Below, one piece after another: positions 14,186 through 56,987 of a DNA stretch of 64,000 nucleotides (position 1 is the first letter of the stretch; every line of letters begins with the position of its first letter). Location: NCBI GenBank assembly GCA_046563655.1, contig CM102283.1, forward strand, positions 5,456,001 through 5,520,000, given 5' to 3'. The notes beneath the pieces were generated by a model, which was given only the letters and a program-made list of their open reading frames with translations, was not told the origin of the DNA and ran no database searches. A program made the position numbers and the translations under genes. Source of the stretch: Yuukianura sp. NJ FZ-2021. Taxonomy: Eukaryota.

Positions 14186-14750
14186 GTGGACAAGTTCTCG
14201 GAAAGCCTCTTGCCAAAGGCATTTCTGAAATCTGTTACGCCAGTGGAAACTGGAGCTGATGGAAACTGCTTTTTCAGGGCTGTTTCCTATCATTTATTCG
14301 GTGCTGAGACATATTACAGTACATTACGCTTCGCTGCACTAATTGATGTACTTCGGAATGAAGCTAATTACCGAAGATTCATTGCCATGCCGCTACGGAA
14401 GACAATTATGAGGCGTTAGTAAATTCTTGTCCAAAGATAGCATGTACGTTGGCGACGCAGAAATATACGCCACTTCAAAAATCCTAAAGCGGCCAATAAA
14501 CGTCTACACCGAATTCAAAAAAGCACCAGAAGGCGACAAGGAATTCTTAGAGTACATGCGCAACTCCAATAACCGAAACCATCGGCGAACTTTATTTGAC
14601 GATGAAGACGCTAAGAATGACCCAATCATGTTACATTACAGGGGAATGTCTGCTAGCGCTAGAAAGAAAAACCATTTTGTAGCATTGTTGTCAAAGGGAA
14701 ACACATTTTTCCCTTGTAACATGGACGAGTATGTACGGCTAAGAAAATTT
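14186..14750 (+). pseudogene. Frameshifted OTU-like cysteine protease domain, probably transposon-borne
   Basis: VETGADGNCFFRAVS (catalytic Cys motif) in one ORF; GDAEIYATSKILKRPINVY and KNHFVALL (catalytic His) in a different frame. Confidence 0.7.
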
Positions 14751-14779
14751 GGCCCAGTGGTAATGATTTTTATTACCGT

Positions 14780-15276
14780 CATTGACGCCCTCCCAGTGAA
14801 AGTAAACAGTGTCATGTGCTACTCTGACTCTACCAGTGTCCTTGGCTGGCTTAAGCCCGGTTCCGACCCGCCGCGCAAGCGCGACATTTTTGTGATGAAC
14901 AGAGTGCGTCCCATAATGCAACTACTTCCGACCGCTAAGTGGAACCATGTTATTGAATCCGAGAATCCAGCCGACCTTCCGTCAGGTTTTTCTGCAAATT
15001 TCTGCAAAGGAATTCCTAACCAACCCACTTTGGCTCAATGGACCACCGTGGGTCAAGTTCACCCAAGTGCCACCCATAGTGAATGTTTGCTCCGTTGGTG
15101 TGAACCTACCATTACCACCACTTCTGGAATTCATCAATTCCACATCCTCTCTCCATAAGATGAAATCGTTCGTGGCATCAGGTCAACGTTTTCTAAAATG
15201 TGCAAAGACAAAAGTGAATGACAACTCCCCTTTAACAGTAGTGGAGTTGGAAGATGTCCTTCTGACTATCGTCTAG
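14780..15276 (+). mobile_element. Degenerate BEL/Pao LTR-retrotransposon pol fragment (RNase H region)
   Basis: YSDSTSVLGWL...FVMNRV...WNHVIESENPADLPS, then frameshifted LWLNGPPW, which are characteristic Pao RNase H motifs. Confidence 0.8.
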
Positions 15277-24478: not shown

Positions 24479-27132
24479 ATGGAAACAAGATCTTCTCATG
24501 CACGAGACCCAATATGGCTGTTAGGAGAATCTCTGGATATGATTTCAGGAACAAACTATCATCCAACGGACAGGTGCTTCGGCGACTCTTTCATCTGCTG
24601 AGAGAAGATAAGAAAACGGCAAAAGATGCTGCTTCTATCGTTACCCATGAAGTCGCAGAATTCTGGGAAAGGGCAAGGATTCCAACAAGAAAGGACTACC
24701 ACGTCATTGCCAAAGTCTTAGACCTCCATGAAAAATATAGAAAACTACAGAAAAGTGCTTCCAGGAAAACCCCAGCTCAAACAAAGCTTGAAGAAAGTTA
24801 TGTCAGTACCCTCGATGACCTCTTCGATATCGCTCATGCTGACGCGCTCTCACAAATTACAATTGAAGAAGACAGAAAGTTTCTTTTAGCTCAAAGGGAA
24901 AAGGGTAAGTCGTTTTTTTAGCCTACATAACTAAATTGATACTTTGAAATCGAAACAAATTCACCACGATTTTAACAAATCCTTAGGTCGTCGGGGTCAT
25001 ATGGCTGGAATTGATAAATCTTTGGCGGCACTGGAATTACGCCAAGAAGAGCGGGAAATGAAAAGGCAGAGCACGGCAGAAAAATACGCCTCTAGAAATA
25101 TACAGGAAACTGTAGAGCTGGCAAGTTCAACATCTAGCTCTGAATCGTCACCAGAACGAAGGCACGACCCCGAATATCGGCCGTCGCGCCATCGAGGTAA
25201 ACCGAGTGGGAACGAGGCTACTCCCGGAACTTCAAGAGACAGAGGAACCACACGGGGAAAAGTTGATGTTGTTACGCTGGACTTGGCAATGGCGCTTGAC
25301 AGAACCCAGACCAGCGACAGAAAAGCGTCGCATGTCCTCGCGGCTATTATAACCTCACTCGGCCTTCCCACCGATGACTTCAGAATCGCCCCGAGCACAA
25401 TCCGAAGAGCCCGGGTTTCTAATCGAGAAGCAATTGCCAGGGAAATTAGAAGAAATTTTGCTATAAAAGTGCCGCTCGTGGTTCACTGGGATTCAAAAAT
25501 TATGCAGGCTCTGGACAGACCGGAGAAGGTTGATCGTGTTGCGATTTGTGTCTCTGGAGAGAAGATTACAAAACTACTCGGAATACCAATTCTCAAGCGT
25601 GGGACCGGCGACGCCACTGCTGATGCTGTTTTTGAAATGTTAGTGGATTGGGACATCGTGGATCAAATTGAGTTTATGTCATTTGATACTACATCCGTCA
25701 ATACCGGAAAATGGGCCGGGGCATCTGTATTACTTCAACAAAAGATTGAAAGGCAAGTCATAGGAGTAGCATGCCGACATCATGTGCTTGAGCTTGTCAT
25801 CGGCTCGGCCAATAGCGCTACGTTGGGAAAAACCACGGCCCCTGAGGCTGGACTTTTTAAGAGATTCCGAGATCAATGGAAATCAATTGACAGATCGACC
25901 TATGCTTCTGGTCTGGAGGACGATTATGTTATGAAAGCACTAGAATCGAACCTAGAAGTGTTGAAGAAAAATGCAATGGCCGTATTGAACAGGGGGACTG
26001 TTAGAGATGACTATAGAGAGGTTCTTGAACTTTGCCTAATTTTTCTTGGCGACGTTTCCTCACCAAATTACAGAATCCGTACCCCTGGACCGATCCACCA
26101 CGCTCGCTGGATATCTAAAGTATTGTACGGAATTAAAGTATTTCTGTTTCGCCAGCAATTTCAAATGTCAGAAAGCGAATTCCTGTCCCTCAGGCGGTTT
26201 GTCACCTTTACCGTAAAGGTTTACGTGGGGGCGTGGTTTCGTGCAGCAAAAGCCAGTACAGCTCCAAGACGGGATTTGGAATTCATCAAAACCTTGATTC
26301 AGTATGAAAGTCAGGATGAGCAAATATCTCAACAAACGGTTCATACATTTATGAACCATCTTTGGTATCTAAATCAACATTTAATTGGCCTTTCCTTTTT
26401 TGACGACGTTGTGCCCGTGGAGACAAAGCGGGAAATGGTTGCACGTCTTCAACATCAAGCCGACGCTCGCGTTGAACCTAGGCCGTTGCTTACGGTGAAA
26501 CAAATTAAAAATGCTCAACTTCCGGATTTTGTCACTGCCAATACGCTGTACTTTTTGGATGCTCTTCGACTAGAAAAGGATTTCTTGAGTTTTGATCCTA
26601 GCAACTGGAATGATTTTCCATCGTTCAAACTTGGAATTACACGGGCAAACAACCTTCAGGTTAGTCTTTAGCTACTTGAACTTAGTAGTGCCGTTTAACC
26701 TAATTACCTATTTAGTAATGATGTATCTACGTAATTTGAAGGTTTACTCTTTATACATTCCAGGTTGTCAACGACATTGCGGAAAGGGCAATTGCATTGG
26801 CACAGGACTTCAATTCCATCCTCAGCAAGCAGGAAGAGCAAAAGCAATTTCTTTTTCAGGTGGTCGAGCAACACAGGAAGCAGTTTCCTCGAGCGACGAA
26901 AGCCGCTTTTGCCTCGAATTTCCCACAATAGTTCTAATACTTAACGCTATGATGCCGAATTACCATTATGGAGGTTACATAAAAAGTTGCTGCCTTTGAG
27001 GCACCTCTTAGCATAGTGCTATAATTCTGAAAATTTTACTAATTTTTTTTCTTACATAATGTAACATTTTTGGAGAGTGAGACTTGAAAAATAAATTAAA
27101 CAAGAACCTTAGGTCAGTGTAGACGCACCCTA
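24479..27132 (+). mobile_element. hAT-like (hATm-type) DDE transposase gene with 2 introns, one frameshift and a candidate 3' terminus
   Basis: Catalytic motifs VVHWDSK, SFDTTSVNTG, ACRHHVLE (CxxH), HHARW and VVNDIAERAI. Introns at ~24905-24987 and ~26660-26763; TAG at 26929-26931. 1-bp frameshift near 24550. GCACCCTA at 27125-27132 resembles a TAGGGTG-type terminus. Subfamily assignment is tentative. Confidence 0.8.
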
Positions 27133-46185: not shown

Positions 46186-46665
46186 TTAAATATCTGTGTA
46201 GTAAAGGTTACGCGGTCCTTCGGTAGATAATGTAAAACCAAACCTAGGATTGCCCCAGAATTTGTTCGAATTTTCTAAATTTTTGTCAACTTCGAACTCC
46301 AATCGTGTTGCACCTCGTTGGCGACCCCAACTTGTAATGTGCTGTTTCATGTCGCTTCCAATTCCTCTTCTTCGATATGCCGGATCTACATAAAATTCAG
46401 CAATGACAACCACTATGGTCATGTTTGACTCTGTGCTGTAAGCATTGGACAATCCGACTGGTCGATTGTCCAAGTAGTACAGGAAGAGACCTCTTCCGCC
46501 TTCCAGAATTCGACGTTTCAGTAGCTGATCATACTCGACCGTGAATTCTTCTTTCGTTTTGGCAGCCATTTCCTCAGGCCAGTTCTCCGACATGTAGGTA
46601 AACATCATGTCCAAGAAAATGGGCCACTCAACAGTATTTGGATCAACTGGTCGAATGTCCAGCAT
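46186..46665 (-). CDS. GNAT-family N-acetyltransferase (intronless CDS)
   Basis: Motif A IAEFYVDPAYRRRGIGS and motif B NENSNKFW..FGF-like (NLENSNKFWGNPRFGF). A splice-acceptor-like TTTGTATTCCAG lies just upstream of the ATG. Confidence 0.85.
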   Translation of the reverse strand: MLDIRPVDPNTVEWPIFLDMMFTYMSENWPEEMAAKTKEEFTVEYDQLLKRRILEGGRGLFLYYLDNRPVGLSNAYSTESNMTIVVVIAEFYVDPAYRRRGIGSDMKQHITSWGRQRGATRLEFEVDKNLENSNKFWGNPRFGFTLSTEGPRNLYYTDI

Positions 46666-47033: not shown

Positions 47034-50000
47034 TTACAATTTTTTGAATTTTAAAATGTAGGATTCAAAAAGTTTGAAAAACGGATTCTCCTCATCCTTA
47101 ACTTTTTCAAAATTGTTTGGATTTGAGCCAAATTCGTAATTCATTGCATCCCAGTAAACATCTCCAAAACCAAAAACGAATCCACTCATTCCAATTTCGA
47201 AACAACTTTTCAAAATTCCCTCCAAATAGGCTTCAGCTGTAGTAATTTCTCTGCAAACGCCAAATTCTCCAACGAAAATCCGGATTCCATGGGAATCGGC
47301 CCACGTTTTCGCTTTTTCAAATTTCGCCTTGATGACGTCATTGTTCCACGGGAGAATTGGGCCAAGTTGTCCTTCGTACATAGGAATTTCTCCTGGAAAT
47401 TTGAATCTTCCGCCATTTTTTCTTTGAGTAAATTTTCTTGGATCGTAAAAGTGAAATGACAGAAGAAGATTTGAATCTTTTGCAAAGAGTTTTGGTGGGA
47501 AAAGCGGTACAGCGTCGATATGGGCCCAGAATGATGGTTCCAGTATTATCGGTGTGATTGGATCCACTTCACGGATGGAATCGATCATGGTTAAGTAAAC
47601 CTGTAGTTCGGCGGGAACCTCTGAAATATGAATACATTAAAAACATAATTTAACATAATATACTATGTAATATAAAGTAATAACTTTAATTTTTTTACAT
47701 AATAAATTTAAATTTAATATTAGCACATTTTAAATTAAATTTGAGTCTCAATGTTATCAACCTTACCATTGTTTGGTTCAACACTTTCGAGTTCTGTAGA
47801 CTGCATGTCTTGTTCAGAAGCCAAGCTCGGTTCATTGATAATGTCGTAGCCTACGACATTTTTGAAAAACTTCAATTCTCCCGCGATGAAGTTCCAAAGC
47901 AGTGGACTTGCCAAATTATGATGGAGAGTTATGACGACTCGGATTCCAAAATTTTCAAAACTGCGTACCGTCTTTTTCAAATTTTCAATTTCCAAATTCG
48001 GATCCACCTTGAATCCAGAAAATTCGCAATCATATTTCGGTCCAATGCCGTTAACCCCTACGGCTCCGATTCGAACGCAAGTGACTCCCAAATTCGAAAG
48101 TATAGCTATCTGCTCAGCCCTGAGTGTCGACGGTACGTTGAAACCAATGAACGGTAAGTCCCAAAATCTCGACTTTTCGGTTTTCATCGTCAAAATTTCA
48201 GCTTCACTTAGGCGTTTCTCGGTATTTGAGGGCCACGATGGCCAACCTTGCAGCATATGGTGAATGTACATTTGGATTCTAGCTTCTCTGACTTCCGGTT
48301 TTGTATGTAAAGCTAATCCAACAGTGTCCGAATCCTCTGTTCTCGTCATAACCGCAACTGAACTCCTAGCGGTACTTAACTTTCTTAGTTGCCTGTTAAA
48401 TGCAACGCAATTCAAAAAAGTTTTTAAAAACGTTCTACAGAGGCTTCAAAAAAGTGTAAAAACTTAAAAATCCTAACCTGTTGAATTTATGATTGAGCAC
48501 AAATGACATCCAGTAGTCGTCGACTAAGTTGAAACTTGGATTTGGCATTTCCACGGACAAACATTCTCTCAGCGCCATTTTTGGAATTAAACAAGCATCG
48601 GCATGGACAAAATGAATGAATTGTTCTGGAGCTTCGTCCGATTTAAAACGCAAGTTTTCATAACTTGCCCAACTTCCCCGGGGATTCTCAAGGTCAAGTT
48701 TATGTGGCTGAAATACGTGACCTCTGACACACAGTACGTCTCGAGGGTATCTGGAGTGTCCGTTCATAAAGAAACTGACAAATCCTGGTCCAGGAATGAC
48801 ATCGTCATCACAAATCAGCAGTGCTTCACTTTTCATCAAAGGTGCAAGGGCAAGTCTGATGGCGCAGTAGTAGTTTTCAGATGAATCTATGACTTCAACA
48901 GATTTCGCTCCAGTTGATTTTTGAATGAAGGGAGCCGCGATTCTTCGTACGACTTCTGATCTGGCTGAGTTGTTGTTCCAAAGTATGATTTGCATGCTGC
49001 CGGAGTAGTCTTGGTTGTTCCAGAGAGCATTCAAGATTTTGGCCAAGTGGTGGGTTCTTTTGTAACAACAAATGGATATCGTCAAGTCGANNNNNNNNNN
49101 NNNNNNNNNNNNNNNNNNNNNNNNNNNNNNNNNNNNNNNNNNNNNNNNNNNNNNNNNNNNNNNNNNNNNNNNNNNNNNNNNNNNNNNNNNTTGGTGATCC
49201 CAGAGAGAGTTCAAGATGCTGGCCAAGTGGTGCGTTCTTTTGTAACAGCAAATGGAGATCGTCACGTCAAAATAAGTTTTCGGTGCCAAATTCGAATTTA
49301 AATCTCCCGCTGCCGCTGATAGGACGCTTCTTCGCTGGATTGTTTCAATAAAATGGCTCGTTTGGAATTTCGTTTTGTCCAGATTTTGCAAATATTCTAT
49401 TGCTAGTTTAATGTTTTCTTTTGTAACTAGTTCAGTAAGGTCCAAATTTTCATCTTCATGGTCATACAACAAGGGATACTGTTCTCCAATGTACTCTGTA
49501 CAAGACTTCATCTTTGGCACGACAATTGGAACATTTCGGTCAATACATTCCAGGATAATCGTGTTTGCCGCGCCTTCGTATTTAAGCGCCAAGAAAACAA
49601 CGGATTTAAGCAAAGTCTTCTCATAATCTTCTGCATTTTGTCTCGAACGAATTTGAATGTCTTGAGGTGCCTCAGCCGCCGCCAATTCGCCATCATTGTC
49701 ACTTCCAATCAAAACTTTTTGAAAATTTGGCGGGATTTTACATTTGAAAAACAGTTTCCAATTCCTGGCAAAACTTCCAATTAAAACAAAGTCGATGATT
49801 TTCCCTTTTTCCCAGCCATACAAAAGAGTGGAATTGCAGATTGTTGCGGAGGGAAGGATCGGGTAGAAGAGACGCTGAATTGGAATTGAGTTTGCCAAAT
49901 TCAAATTCTCCCGCAAATATTCTGCTTGAACTGTCGTGAGTGTGAATAGACCTCGGCAGTACTTCATTCCTTGTGCATATTTCTTGGTGCAGAGACGTTG

Positions 50001-53000
50001 TAAATCCGGTGTATAAAATTGTTCTGGATGCTTCACCACCGAGTGAATCACTCCAATCCATGGATTGCCAACTAAGATCTCCGGAGTATCAGCAAAGGCT
50101 TGTTCAACTGCTGGAATGAACACGGTAGATGCGCAGTCATCGTGGAACTCTCTGCGCAGAAGTGCAATCGATTCTTCAAAGGCATTGTTATGATGGTGTG
50201 TCCACCCAGGCGGATTTTCAAACTTCAATTTCTTGGTGGGAGACAAATCCAATATGGCGGGAATGTTACAAATTTTCTCACTTTGCCCCGAACCGACATA
50301 CAGAAATCCCTTAGCAATTGTTATTGGCTTTCCAATTGTCTTCAGTTCCCACGCATGCGCCGTAAAAAATGGAATTGAAGATCGGTTCAGTCCGTTGAAC
50401 ACCAAAATAGTTTTGCCGGGTTTCAAAGTTGGTTGAATAAGGTTCCAGATTTGTTCCAATTCTTCTCCGTCTTGTGTAATATCAACGAAAACCAAGTCTG
50501 GTTGAGTTTGTTTCAATTTTGGCGGCAATTCTTCAAGTTCGTATTCCCATTCAACGGGAACAATATTGTCAGAATAGCTTTCCGTAAACTGATTGAATTT
50601 ACGCAGAAAGGATTTGCCAACGCCCATTCTCCCTTCGGCGTAAATGAAGTCGTCCATCCACTTTTGCCATTTGAAGGCATCACAAGCATAAATTGTACTT
50701 GAAATTCCTACAGATTTTGCAGCAATGGCCAATCGCACCGTGGCATGGCCCAACCAGCATCCAATTTCCCATACAATCTCAGGACGTTTTGTTTTCATCA
50801 GCCAAGTCAAAAATTGTAAAGTTTCGACATCCGTTGTAGTGGGAATTCTGAAAGCATTTCGATATTCTTCTGCATCCAAATCCTCCAGTATCCATGGTCT
50901 CTTGGTGTCCTCAAAATCGTTTTGTGTTTTGAAATAATTCAAAAATGGCGCCCAATATTCCTGAAGTTCCATTCTAGATTCCGTGTTTGAAAGTTCTGAC
51001 AAGCACAAATTGCACTCTTCTGTCAGCATTTCCATGGCGTCCCACCGTTCATGGAGCAAACTTTCTTGTAATTTGAGCCCAACGGAAGCAATTCGGCTGA
51101 ACAAATGGCCTCGGGCGGAGGCAAAACCATCGGAACTCTTCAACATCAATTCAAAAGTTCCCGGTTTTATGAAAGGTTGATGTGGCGCTTGAATTTGCAG
51201 TGGCGGGAGATTCAAAATTTTGCCAGACGGGTTAAAGTATTCTCGAATTACTGAAACGATGTAGTCCAAATCATCTTTGCAGAGACTCGTGTATGTTGGA
51301 AGGTAAAATCCAGTGGTTCCGAATTTTTCTGAATTCGGTAACCTGATACTTGTGGAACCATTTGAGTTGTAGGCTGGTTGCAAATGAAGCGGGAAAAAGT
51401 AGTCGCGTGTTTCAATTCCATGTTGGGCCAAAAAGGCGCGAAGATTTGTGCGTTCAGATTTAGATTCACATTCGACTCCAAATACCCACGGAGTGTCGTG
51501 GGCACCGCAAGGGGGCATTAGCTTCAGTTGTGAAATTCCGGCCAAAAGTTTTCTGTATTCCGTAGCGAGAAAGGCGCGATGATTCAAAATGTGTTCCATG
51601 TCGTCTAAGCATCCACAAGCAACTGCTGCTCCAAGTCCATTGATTTTGGCGTTCATGGCGACTTCAAAATGGACGAAATGAAATGACGGCGTGAATCCGT
51701 GATTGGCCAAACTCGAAATTCTGGAAGCCACGGCCGGGTCTTTGGCCAACACAAATCCTCCATCTCCTGCATGAATCATTTTGTTTGCATAGAGACTTGC
51801 GCAGGCGTAGTGTCCAAACATCCCAAGATACTTTTCTGTGCCCGCCGAAATTTGAATTTTGATTCCAACACATTCGCTTACATCTTCAATCAGAATCCAT
51901 CCGTTGGCATTACACTGGCTTTCGATTTCTAGCAAATCTTTTGTAGGAACAGGAACACCGTAAGTGTGTGCTACAATAATAGCTCGAGTCCTCTGCGTGA
52001 CACATTTTTGAATTTCGGTCCATCCTGGATTGTAATTGGCTGAACTCGAATCCGCAAAAACCGGAGTTGCACCAATGAACTTGCAAGCATTCGGTACTGC
52101 AACCATCGTTAAGCTTGGAACGATAACTTCGTCCCCTGGACCAATCCGAGCAGTTTGTAAAGCAAGGACTAAGGCAGTAAATCCATTTGAACAAGCAAGG
52201 GCCACAGGAACTTCGAAAACTTTTTTCAATTTTTCGCTCATTTCCGTAGGCCAGGAAGTTGCTGACGAAATTTTGCCAGTTTCGAGGGCATTGTAAACGT
52301 TGTCTTTGATTTTAGTTGACATGTAGGGCATAGCAACTCTGTAGCGCCATCCAGTATAGGGCGCCGGTGGCTCTCTGTCGGGAATCATCGGAAGTATGTC
52401 TTCAGCCACTTTCAGTTGGGATTCTGATTCCAAGCGTTTCAAAATTTCAGAAACGTCCAATTTCAGATTTTGAATTTTGGGAGGAAGGTCGGTCCAATTT
52501 GAAATTTTTTGTTCCAGGGGAAACGGGTTTTGTTTTTGAGCGAAAGATTTTAGGGTGTGGCCAATCGGATTGCAAGAAAGAGCTGCCAAAATGGAGTTGC
52601 AAGTTTGAGCTCGATCTGCAACTAGGTTTTCGTAAGTGACAAAAATCGGAACCATTTGAACAGGCCACTCTTGTCCAATTTTGATCCAGTCTCGAACGAT
52701 GTCATCGTATTCCTTTTGAATTAAAGCAGCGGAGAGATGAACTTGGTGACATTCCTGTCCAACTTTATCAGTAAACCAAATTTTAGTTTTCATGGCAATG
52801 TATTTTGAAACAATGGCTTCCAGAACTTGGGCTCTCCAGAGGACAATGACGTGAGTAATTCCGAGACTCTCCGCAAGAGTATTGAAACTGAGTCCTCTTC
52901 CATAGATTTGTTCTGGAAATACTTTGAAACCGATTTTCTGTGCTTTTAGCTTGGAACTGAGCATTTCGGACCGGATGAAATCCAGTGGAGGCAGTCCATC

Positions 53001-53123
53001 CGGAATGTCATTTTCGTCGTTCAAGAGTTCGCAGAACATGTAAATGTCTGGATGCGAGTTGAGGAGATTCGCAAGCAAAGTGGATCCAGTCCTGGGATTG
53101 GCCAGAATCAAGAACCGACTCAT
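47034..53123 (-). CDS. Giant six-domain glycan-modifying enzyme: sulfotransferase, DegT/perosamine-synthase-type aminotransferase, SAM methyltransferase, GT-B (GT4-like), GT2, GH5 (3 coding exons, ~1950 aa, contains an N gap)
   Basis: Motifs in order: PRTGSTLL (PAPS loop); SNGFTAL, IEDVSE, SLYANKMIHAGDGG (PLP Lys); VWEIGCWLGHAT, DLVFVD; SVVFL..AANTIILECIDRNVPIVV..EYIGEQYPL; ISICCYKR, ICDDDVIP, VDDYW; GYDIINEP, SFHFY, VGEFG. Exons 53123-48478, 48392-47767 and 47620-47034 are joined in frame by GT-AG introns. Confidence 0.82.
49091..49190. other. Assembly gap (100 N) with diverged duplicated flanks
   Basis: Run of N; both flanks encode the GT2 start (DVTISICCYKRTHHLASILNSLWDHQ versus DLTISICCYKRTHHLAKILNALWNNQ). 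Confidence 0.95.
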
Positions 53124-56133: not shown

Positions 56134-56180
56134 AATTGAAGGGGATACAACTTTACGAAGTTCGTTTATTTTTTTCAACA

Positions 56181-56987
56181 ATGTCGTTTTGGAATCAACG
56201 AGCATTCTGTTTAGTTACTGGAGCGTCACGTGGAATCGGGAAATGTATTGCAGTAGAATTCGCCAAAAAAGTTAAATCTGGATCCGTCTTCTTGACGATT
56301 GCTCGGTCAGAGAAGGCCCTAGAAGAAACCAAGTTAGAAATGCTACGTACTGGAGCCAAAGACATTCATGTCGTCACCGGTGCTCTTGACCTGGGCAAAC
56401 CGAATCCAGCCGAATACCTCACCCTTATCAACTCTGCTATTACTTCAGCTAATGCCAAAGTGGCAGACTTCGACCATGCCATACTGGTTCACAACGCCGG
56501 TTCCCTCGGAAACATTAGCATTCGGGCCATTGACGTAGAAAATTTACAAGAACTTCGAGACTTCTACGAATTCAATTTGTTCTCAATGATTCTCCTGTCT
56601 ACCCAATTCTTCAAGGTCTTCCACAATTCAAAAAAGCAGCGCAGCATTGTTCAAATTTCGTCTGGAGGGGCTGTTGAACCTTTCAAAACTTGGAGTATGT
56701 ACTGTGCTGCGAAAGCAGCTAGAGACATGTTCATCCGCAGTATCGTCCTTGAAGAGCCGTCGATTTCTGGCATAAGTTACGCTCCGGGACTTGTTGACAC
56801 GGACATCTACACTGAAGCTGAAGCGAATACTGGAGACAACTCGCTTGCCGAGTTTTTTCAAACGGCAAAAGCATCAGGCCAGGTTCGCACTCCTGTTCAA
56901 ACTGTTTCGAAATTAATTCAAGTTTTGGCGGACAAAACTTATGTTAAGGGCGAGCATGTGTGCTACGAGGACATTCCAGACAAGTGA
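56181..56987 (+). CDS. SPR: Sepiapterin reductase (SDR family), intronless
   Basis: TGASRGIG, LVHNAGSLG, W..YCAAKAARDMF and SYAPGLVDTD. AATAAA at ~57044. Confidence 0.85.
   Translation: MSFWNQRAFCLVTGASRGIGKCIAVEFAKKVKSGSVFLTIARSEKALEETKLEMLRTGAKDIHVVTGALDLGKPNPAEYLTLINSAITSANAKVADFDHAILVHNAGSLGNISIRAIDVENLQELRDFYEFNLFSMILLSTQFFKVFHNSKKQRSIVQISSGGAVEPFKTWSMYCAAKAARDMFIRSIVLEEPSISGISYAPGLVDTDIYTEAEANTGDNSLAEFFQTAKASGQVRTPVQTVSKLIQVLADKTYVKGEHVCYEDIPDK

Follow-up and report, generated by a model that had tools for sequence, protein, structure and literature searches.

Perosamine and other 4-amino-4,6-dideoxyhexoses of its kind count as sugars of microbes, known from O-antigens and polyene antibiotics, and we know of no animal that makes perosamine-type sugars or a glycan containing them. 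The locus studied here raises the question of whether an animal gene could provide such a sugar by tapping the fucose pathway of its host. The window, i.e., the whole stretch of 64,000 nucleotides that was analysed (Yuukianura sp. NJ FZ-2021, assembly GCA_046563655.1, contig CM102283.1, positions 5,456,001 to 5,520,000), carries on its minus strand a gene for a large multi-domain fusion protein, in which a preliminary description had recognised a domain resembling GDP-perosamine synthase (Per) and had proposed that the host supplies the keto sugar. In animals, GDP-mannose 4,6-dehydratase (GMD) makes GDP-4-keto-6-deoxymannose in the cytosol, en route to GDP-fucose. The present analysis suggests, with a probability that we put at roughly 0.55, that the fusion protein is a soluble cytosolic glycan-assembly enzyme, one module of which would turn this host intermediate into GDP-perosamine or a close GDP-amino-dideoxyhexose. 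Judged from the sequence, GDP-perosamine would be the leading candidate product rather than a demonstrated one.

The aminotransferase domain and its place among the Per-type enzymes

The aminotransferase domain matched the Pfam profile PF01041 from profile position 4 to 359 of 360 (E = 5.4e-68; 230.3 bits against a cut-off of 19.8), with a span that lies within about 25 bases of the coordinates first given for it (51235-52345), and the translation of the minus-strand open reading frame (ORF) contained all four of the motifs originally quoted, namely ACSNGFTALVLALQTARIGPGDEVIVPSLTMVAVPNA, LIEDVSE, ASLYANKMIHAGDGG, and GIETRDYFFPLHLQPAY. The Schiff-base lysine (Lys448) was a lysine throughout the eukaryote-type clade described below (38 rows) and in Per, WecE, and ArnB, its equivalent being missing in 3dr4, a K186A mutant. 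The aspartate of the IED motif, which pairs with the pyridine nitrogen, and the phosphate-binding serine of ASLY also aligned with those of Per, WecE, and ArnB. In an alignment of 85 rows, the window kept Lys448, the Asp and both Glu of IEDxxE, the Ser of ASLY, the Thr of PSLT, and the His of AHTYG, so that none of the key residues binding the cofactor pyridoxal 5'-phosphate (PLP) had been lost. The AlphaFold2 (AF2) model of the domain (predicted local distance difference test (pLDDT) score 94.8; predicted template modelling (pTM) score 0.93) showed a fold-type I aminotransferase fold, and Foldseek aligned it with more than 30 DegT family structures at template modelling (TM) scores of 0.82-0.88, with 0.88 to 3dr4/3bn1; the closest structure was 7b0m, an uncharacterised metagenomic transaminase. 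Judged by these residues and the predicted fold, the domain is a catalytically complete DegT-family PLP sugar aminotransferase, which the comparisons below place in the Per / 'DII' subgroup.

The similarity scores ranked GDP-perosamine synthases first. In a phmmer search of the PDB, the best match was the Caulobacter crescentus GDP-perosamine synthase (158 bits, E = 2.9e-45), followed at lower scores by QdtB (124 bits), DesV (120), DesI (93), ArnB (82), PglE (74), and WecE (69-74). Likewise, when Escherichia coli proteins were compared with the window by tblastn, the Per of strain O157 (31% identity, E = 4e-53) preceded ArnB (2e-27) and WecE (2e-22). The NCBIfam models of WecE, ArnB, PseC, DesI, and RfbH all missed their cut-offs (score/cut-off 145/375, 112/631, 135/423.5, 130/650, and 123/423, respectively), and all dTDP/UDP-specific models scored below their own cut-offs as well as below the LegC model discussed in the next section.

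For the phylogenetic analysis, a domain search yielded 214 rows, 85 of which (every locus and every named protein, together with a sample of unnamed proteins) were analysed by IQ-TREE (LG+C20, SH-aLRT); the other 129 rows, mostly unnamed, lay outside this set, and FastTree took all 214. The window fell into a eukaryote-type clade of 38 rows (support 100), which was nested in a group of 73 rows (support 95); that group also took in O157 Per, an actinomycete clade of 17 rows, and all loci with an adjacent GMD gene. ArnB, WecE, the PglF-fused enzymes, and second paralogues were placed outside this group by branches with supports of 87-95, and FastTree recovered the same nesting. Thus, the phylogenetic check proposed in the preliminary description groups the domain with Per and apart from WecE and ArnB (support 95), and a grouping with dTDP/UDP-specific subfamilies was found neither in the trees, in which ArnB, WecE, and the PglF-fused enzymes stood for them, nor by the NCBIfam cut-offs. 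Within the eukaryote-type clade, a sponge-type branch of 12 rows included two loci from records labelled as bacterial (L001 and L002), and another branch (support 97) joined eight stand-alone dinoflagellate proteins with 15 fused proteins. Moreover, six positions (E163, N193, Y134, N237, K/R239, and R319) are common to O157 Per, the clade around it, and the actinomycete clade and differ in WecE and ArnB; the window matched the Per group at every one of them, if Lys in place of Arg is counted as equivalent.

Keto-sugar supply and the choice of substrate

A source of the keto sugar was looked for next to the gene. A tblastn search of E. coli GMD, RffG (dTDP-glucose 4,6-dehydratase), ArnA, Fcl, ManC, and ManB against the six frames of the window returned noise (best E = 0.72, at most 23 bits), and the sole short-chain dehydrogenase/reductase gene of the window (56136-56987, plus strand) encodes sepiapterin reductase (PDB match, E = 3e-42), in agreement with the earlier statement that the window holds no nucleotide-sugar dehydratase. 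The Pfam epimerase/dehydratase domain was found in none of 41 fused homologues (P0002-P0042); the more distant bacterial fusions P0052-P0055 do carry it. A hydropathy scan detected neither a signal peptide in the fusion protein nor a membrane anchor ahead of its sulfotransferase domain. The sole hydrophobic segment was marginal (Kyte-Doolittle (KD) score 1.64, residue 302) and lay within the aminotransferase fold, and five of six full-length homologues had none, the sixth (P0032) showing a matching marginal one (KD 1.68, residue 350). The fusion enzyme is therefore predicted to be soluble and cytosolic. Given the absence of a 4,6-dehydratase from the fusion and its relatives and this predicted location, the use of host GDP-4-keto-6-deoxymannose would be the most economical reading of the sequence. 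A precedent for one GMD pool feeding both branches is found in the O-antigen cluster of E. coli O157, where gmd, the fucose synthase gene, and per lie side by side.

The domains that accompany the aminotransferase would suit the later steps of such a pathway. From the N- to the C-terminus, the fusion protein comprises a sulfotransferase, the aminotransferase, a methyltransferase, a GT-B glycosyltransferase, a GT2 glycosyltransferase, and a glycoside hydrolase family 5 (GH5) domain, its N-terminus being the nucleotide-binding loop of the sulfotransferase. The GT-B segment (residues 930-1300) had no match in Pfam and PDB sequence searches and was recognised from its AF2 model (pLDDT 81), for which the best Foldseek matches were glycogen synthase, BshA, OtsA (trehalose-6-phosphate synthase), MshA, WaaG, and SenB (E of about 1e-7, TM 0.41-0.58). 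The GT2 domain was also annotated in many fused homologues (precomputed Pfam domains). The claim that the fusion possesses glycosyltransferase domains of its own is thereby borne out, one of the two by Pfam (GT2) and the other by structure (GT-B). In addition, the GH5 motifs NEP and GEFG could be read directly in the sequence.

As such, the following route may be proposed. Host GMD would supply GDP-4-keto-6-deoxymannose, a free cytosolic intermediate of GDP-fucose synthesis, to which the aminotransferase module would move an amino group from glutamate, yielding GDP-perosamine or a related GDP-amino-dideoxyhexose. The two glycosyltransferase domains would then put the amino sugar into a glycan, which the methyltransferase and sulfotransferase domains would decorate and the GH5 domain would trim or release. 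Because the fusion protein is predicted to be soluble, the glycan would either stay in the cell or be moved out by a separate exporter.

The prokaryotic relatives were examined for the sugar that they may use. A motif-guided scan of species-representative genomes gave 35 loci, and a homologue sharing 39-55% identity with E. coli GMD lay within 10 kb of the aminotransferase gene in L006, L013, L014, L017, L021, L029, and L030, being directly downstream of the actinomycete aminotransferase in L006, L013, and L017. The actinomycete loci that were inspected (3/3) were modular polyketide synthase (PKS) clusters, each with a GT1 glycosyltransferase gene directly upstream and, in L009, with P450 genes as well, a layout of the polyene macrolide cluster type. 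The polyene 'DII' enzymes (NysDII/AmphDII/PerDII type) aminate GDP-keto-6-deoxymannose to mycosamine (3-amino), the product of most of them, or to perosamine. Furthermore, tblastn of a plasmid collection gave 690 records (best identity 33%), four of which were inspected. GMD was nearby in two of these, on a Citrobacter plasmid (manC-manB-gmd-aminotransferase-ABC transporter) and a Caballeronia plasmid (gmd, GDP-fucose synthase, aminotransferase, manC); a Streptomyces plasmid hit belonged to a polyene-type cluster, with a glycosyltransferase gene directly upstream in addition to P450 and PKS genes, and the remaining one, from Bradyrhizobium, is compared with the fusion below. The informative prokaryotic relatives thus all point to GDP-mannose-derived keto sugars, and the carbon to be aminated is not fixed by them.

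Several observations weigh against GDP-perosamine. A GMD gene is near only seven of the 35 relatives, and the identity to characterised Per enzymes is only 30-31%, so that the substrate is not readable from identity. The top NCBIfam model was that of the LegC family (TIGR04181; 196.4 bits, below its cut-off of 420), and NCBIfam has no curated Per-specific model; the LegC model was also the best for the genuine O157 Per (393 bits) and for three GMD-adjacent relatives (267, 311, and 325 bits), indicating that it is the default NCBIfam model for Per-type enzymes. The stem of the eukaryote-type clade was long (1.16 changes per site in IQ-TREE), leaving room for a change of substrate, and the forks among the eukaryote, actinomycete, and O157 clades were open in the 85-row tree, so that the eukaryote-type clade was not specifically the sister of Per. 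The fold comparison was dropped as evidence on the substrate, since ArnB and WecE also reached TM scores of 0.87-0.88.

The active site adds to these points. In PMC11726168, Tyr86, Ser89, and Glu160 are given as pocket residues of C. crescentus Per; only Glu160 of these is retained in the window, in which Met replaces Tyr86 and Val replaces Ser89, as in 37/38 and 38/38 members of the eukaryote-type clade, respectively. The Thr of the NGT motif is replaced by Phe or Tyr in 29 of the 38 members (Phe in the window), and Met86 recurs in 15 of the 17 actinomycete polyene-cluster enzymes, whereas the O157 Per clade has Phe or Tyr at this position. The pocket of the domain, as aligned, is not the canonical Per pocket. 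Hence, the designation 'perosamine-synthase-like' stands in that the closest characterised relatives are GDP-perosamine synthases, and is to be qualified by the identity of 30-31% and by the replacement of two of the three Per pocket residues.

Such features could also be those of an active sugar aminotransferase working on another nucleotide-keto sugar, for example a UDP- or dTDP-4-keto-6-deoxyhexose (rhamnose-type pathway) or the UDP-4-keto-pentose from UDP-xylose synthase, and producing a different amino sugar. The stem of 1.16, the exchanges at three active-site positions (Met at 86, Val at 89, and Phe/Tyr for the NGT threonine), the low identity to true Per with no curated family cut-off reached, and the uncharacterised nature of the closest structure (7b0m) all agree with such a change. 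We regard it as unlikely, though a serious competitor, considering that every sequence ranking puts GDP-sugar enzymes first with the UDP/dTDP enzymes well behind, that ArnB, WecE, and the PglF-fused UDP enzymes are split off by branches with supports of 87-95, that the six Per-group positions are all kept, and that a dehydratase, which a substrate not supplied by the host would require, is missing throughout the fusion family.

The shared Met86 bears on a further alternative, in which the host GMD product would be aminated at C3 after a 3,4-keto shift, giving a mycosamine-like GDP-3-amino-3,6-dideoxyhexose. This residue links the window to the actinomycete enzymes and not to the O157 Per clade, and the actinomycete clade, with its PKS/GT1/P450 loci, is among the nearest prokaryotic neighbours. 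On the other hand, the window differs from that clade in having Asn instead of Trp after PxxA, His instead of Ser in PLH, and Val89 instead of Ser/Thr; the link to the clade is an open fork, the best solved match is a C4 enzyme, and no ketoisomerase is evident. Amination at C3 therefore appears improbable, and amination of the host intermediate to GDP-perosamine or a close relative is preferred.

Gene model, genomic setting, and distribution

The gene was resolved into three exons (Table 1), which give a spliced coding sequence of 5,859 nt, in frame and with a single terminal stop. Full-length homologues were collinear by tblastn over three blocks of the window, and the homologues P0002 and P0004 were collinear with the gene from residue 1. 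The splice donor of exon 1 reads AACAG|GTTAGG, and the splice product over intron 1 (...HKFNR|QLRKL...) agrees with the family consensus FxRxLRKL. The term 'fusion' used at the outset was therefore correct but understated, as the gene runs on through two introns into the GH5 domain, whose halves Pfam recognised in the next two ORFs downstream. An assembly gap lies inside the coding sequence, with DVTISICCYKRTHHLASILNSLWDHQ on one side and DLTISICCYKRTHHLAKILNALWNNQ on the other, and a near-identical stretch (...ISICCYKRTHHLA...) occurs on both flanks, which is probably a haplotype or scaffolding duplication. Given these near-duplicate flanks, the 1,952 residues read here probably exceed the true length of the protein by about 60.

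Table 1. Features of the fusion gene and its downstream neighbour (positions counted from the first letter of the window)
Feature	Position	Strand	Content and basis
ORF	48435..53123	-	Holds the aminotransferase domain; exon 1 derives from it
Exon 1	48478..53123	-	ATG at 53123; sulfotransferase, aminotransferase, methyltransferase, GT-B, GT2; ORF list
Sulfotransferase (Sulfotransfer_3 / Stf0-like)	52563..53111	-	Residues 5-187; Pfam PF13469 (E = 3e-7), PF09037 (E = 7e-6)
DegT/DnrJ/EryC1 PLP-dependent sugar aminotransferase domain (Per-like)	51246..52319	-	Residues 269-626; Pfam PF01041
Schiff-base lysine codon	51780..51782	-	Residue 448, SLYANK; aligned to the sffgnK lysine of 3bn1
Methyltransf_24 (class I S-adenosylmethionine (SAM) methyltransferase)	50403..50768	-	Residues 786-907; Pfam PF13578 (E = 1.4e-7)
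GT-B fold glycosyltransferase-like	49224..50336	-	Residues 930-1300; predicted structure and Foldseek
Assembly gap, 100 N	49091..49190		Inside the fusion coding sequence; near-duplicate stretch of about 26 residues on both flanks
GT2 (GT-A fold) glycosyltransferase	48567..49079	-	Residues 1349-1519; Pfam PF00535 (E = 5e-5, 23.7 bits against a cut-off of 23.3)
Intron 1	48393..48477	-	85 nt, GT..AG
Exon 2	47767..48392	-	Linker and first GH5 half, NEP motif; tblastn, Pfam Cellulase, splice model
Intron 2	47621..47766	-	146 nt, GTAAGG..TTTCAG
Exon 3	47034..47620	-	Second GH5 half (GEFG motif) and stop codon; Pfam PF00150 (E = 7.8e-12), tblastn
GNAT acetyltransferase gene, intronless	46186..46665	-	Pfam PF00583 (E = 8.5e-15); 368 bp downstream of the fusion gene

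The genes flanking the fusion gene in the window are of animal type (C2H2 zinc-finger, SH2, and RhoGEF exons), and its guanine-cytosine (GC) content is like that of its surroundings. The animal neighbours, the matching GC content, and the spliced frame together make contamination very unlikely. More broadly, the notion that this is not a working animal gene, and instead bacterial contamination or a decaying relic of a transfer, could draw on the in-gene assembly gap with its duplicated flanks and on the bacterial-looking GNAT neighbour. It is hardly credible, however, in view of the frame kept open over three exons, the two GT-AG introns with a splice product that fits the family consensus, the retention of all catalytic residues, the surrounding animal genes and fitting GC content, and the recovery of full-length homologues from the assemblies of six or more animal groups, with contigs of up to 193 Mb. 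In the preferred reading, the fusion gene is of non-animal origin and now a spliced resident of an animal genome. Its own protein was absent from the protein database, the nearest entry being a tardigrade protein (58-60% identical).

For the GNAT neighbour, the nearest Atlas clusters were bacterial, and a search of 5.8 billion proteins gave just two homologues. The gene could be a second acquisition by transfer, and its product a possible N-acetylase acting on the amino sugar; it is only 27% identical to the GNAT of L001. Elsewhere in the window, an ORF of 575 residues (24944-26671, plus strand) had no Pfam match and lies near other long unmatched ORFs (14427-15158 and 24514-24921); all three could be parts of a mobile element.

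Fused homologues, 43-58% identical over the aminotransferase domain, were found in a tardigrade (Paramacrobiotus), springtails (Orchesella cincta and O. dallaii), sciarid flies (Bradysia and Pseudolycoriella), a mite (Dinothrombium), rotifers (Brachionus and Rotaria), and a nematode (Panagrolaimus). Some database homologues bear the automatic name 'GDP-perosamine synthase', and the literature search, which included the searchable supplements of the O. cincta genome paper, found no study of a Per-like enzyme or of the fusion in animals. Two variants of the domain make-up were observed. In the Brachionus homologue P0030, an ATP-sulfurylase PUA-like domain (PF14306) is added, suggesting that activated sulfate is required. 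In P0039, choline-kinase/APH domains are present, and the sulfotransferase domain that is listed for 16 of the 41 fused homologues is not, a swap that hints at phosphorylation instead of sulfation.

The sciarid and springtail sequences formed one clade (support 99) with the mites and the tardigrade nearby, which is not the animal phylogeny. The same trio of sciarids, springtails, and mites is reported for horizontally shared terpene synthases in PMC11665903, and the distribution of the fusion corresponds to this trio plus the tardigrade, rotifers, and nematode. With the fusion, a large multi-domain example joins the evidence that genes are exchanged within the microfauna of soil and moss. It is tempting to go further and to see in it a cytosolic, single-polypeptide 'glycan factory' of non-animal origin that was spread by gene transfer among unrelated micro-invertebrates, draws off the GDP-fucose intermediate of its host, and makes a methylated, sulfated perosamine-type glycan, a broader proposal that is put forward tentatively and is somewhat more doubtful than even. 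Were it true, micro-invertebrates would have a bacterial-style glycan, and some animals would be using their own GDP-fucose pathway to construct a glycan with bacterial chemistry.

Comparison with known systems

The functions joined in the fusion were also found as separate genes. L001 (1-21131), a record labelled as a Stappiaceae metagenome-assembled genome (MAG), carries within 20 kb two GH5 genes and genes for a Sulfotransfer_3 protein, a GT-B+GT2 protein, and a Per-like enzyme (45% identical), which line up with segments of the fusion, as well as a GNAT gene; its 21 kb showed no methyltransferase, and a GMD search found no dehydratase within 10 kb. In L002 (1-4708, labelled as a Sansalvadorimonas MAG), the Per-like gene is paired with a GH5 gene. 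The occurrence of these functions as separate genes in L001, and of the pair in L002, indicates that the domains are a conserved functional set and not an accident of annotation. These records have a low coding density of about 45-60% (about 45% in L001), a GC content of 0.43-0.47 (0.425 in L001), and an apparently split GT gene, all of which look eukaryotic, and their Per-like genes cluster with sponge proteins, suggesting that the DNA may come from a host or another eukaryote and have been binned with bacteria. Owing to this doubtful origin, L001 and L002 were not used as evidence for a bacterial donor.

Stand-alone eukaryotic relatives named 'GDP-perosamine synthase-like' occur in dinoflagellates, for example Effrenium (P0074) and Prorocentrum (P0086), and in sponges, for example Corticium (P0099), Oscarella (P0104), and Amphimedon (P0138), those of the dinoflagellates being sister to the fused clade (support 97). 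These proteins are 43-47% identical to the domain, share SLYANKxIT, HFVHFE, and ETRDYFFPL with the fused forms, and fall into one clade with them (support 100), but unlike the fusion they are single-domain proteins; nothing on their function was found in the published literature.

Among the bacterial systems, the actinomycete DII-type enzymes are 33-34% identical to the window, stand among its nearest prokaryotic neighbours in the trees, and share Met86, whereas their setting in PKS/GT1/P450 clusters and their Trp and Ser signatures (Asn and His in the window) set them apart. The chemistries of the fusion recur in the Bradyrhizobium plasmid cluster L041 (NZ_CP094524.1, 196228-211316), whose aminotransferase is 32% identical to that of the window and has as its neighbours two sulfotransferases, two methyltransferases, glycosyltransferases of the GT1, GT2, and GT4 families, and an ABC exporter. 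This cluster differs from the fusion in its separate genes, in an epimerase/dehydratase-family gene of its own, and in the exporter. As an ancestor of the fusion it was rejected, because only the aminotransferase is homologous.

The closest characterised counterpart is Per itself. In E. coli O157:H7 Sakai, the per gene sits between wzx and gmd in the O-antigen cluster; we take this gene to be Per from its O-antigen position and its designation ECs2841. In NC_002695.2 (L037, 22257-23351), it is named 'arnB / UDP-pentos-4-ulose aminotransferase' and its neighbour wbdR 'neuD / shikimate 5-dehydrogenase'; both names look like annotation errors and could mislead the automatic naming of relatives. 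Compared with the Per enzymes of C. crescentus (3bn1/3dr4/3dr7) and E. coli O157:H7 (ECs_2841), the domain of the window is alike in its fold, in the catalytic Lys, Asp, and Ser, and in the six group residues. Per, however, is a free enzyme of 364-373 residues and in O157 has gmd, manC, and manB beside its gene, whereas the domain of the window has no such neighbours and is embedded in a eukaryotic fusion of about 1,950 residues.

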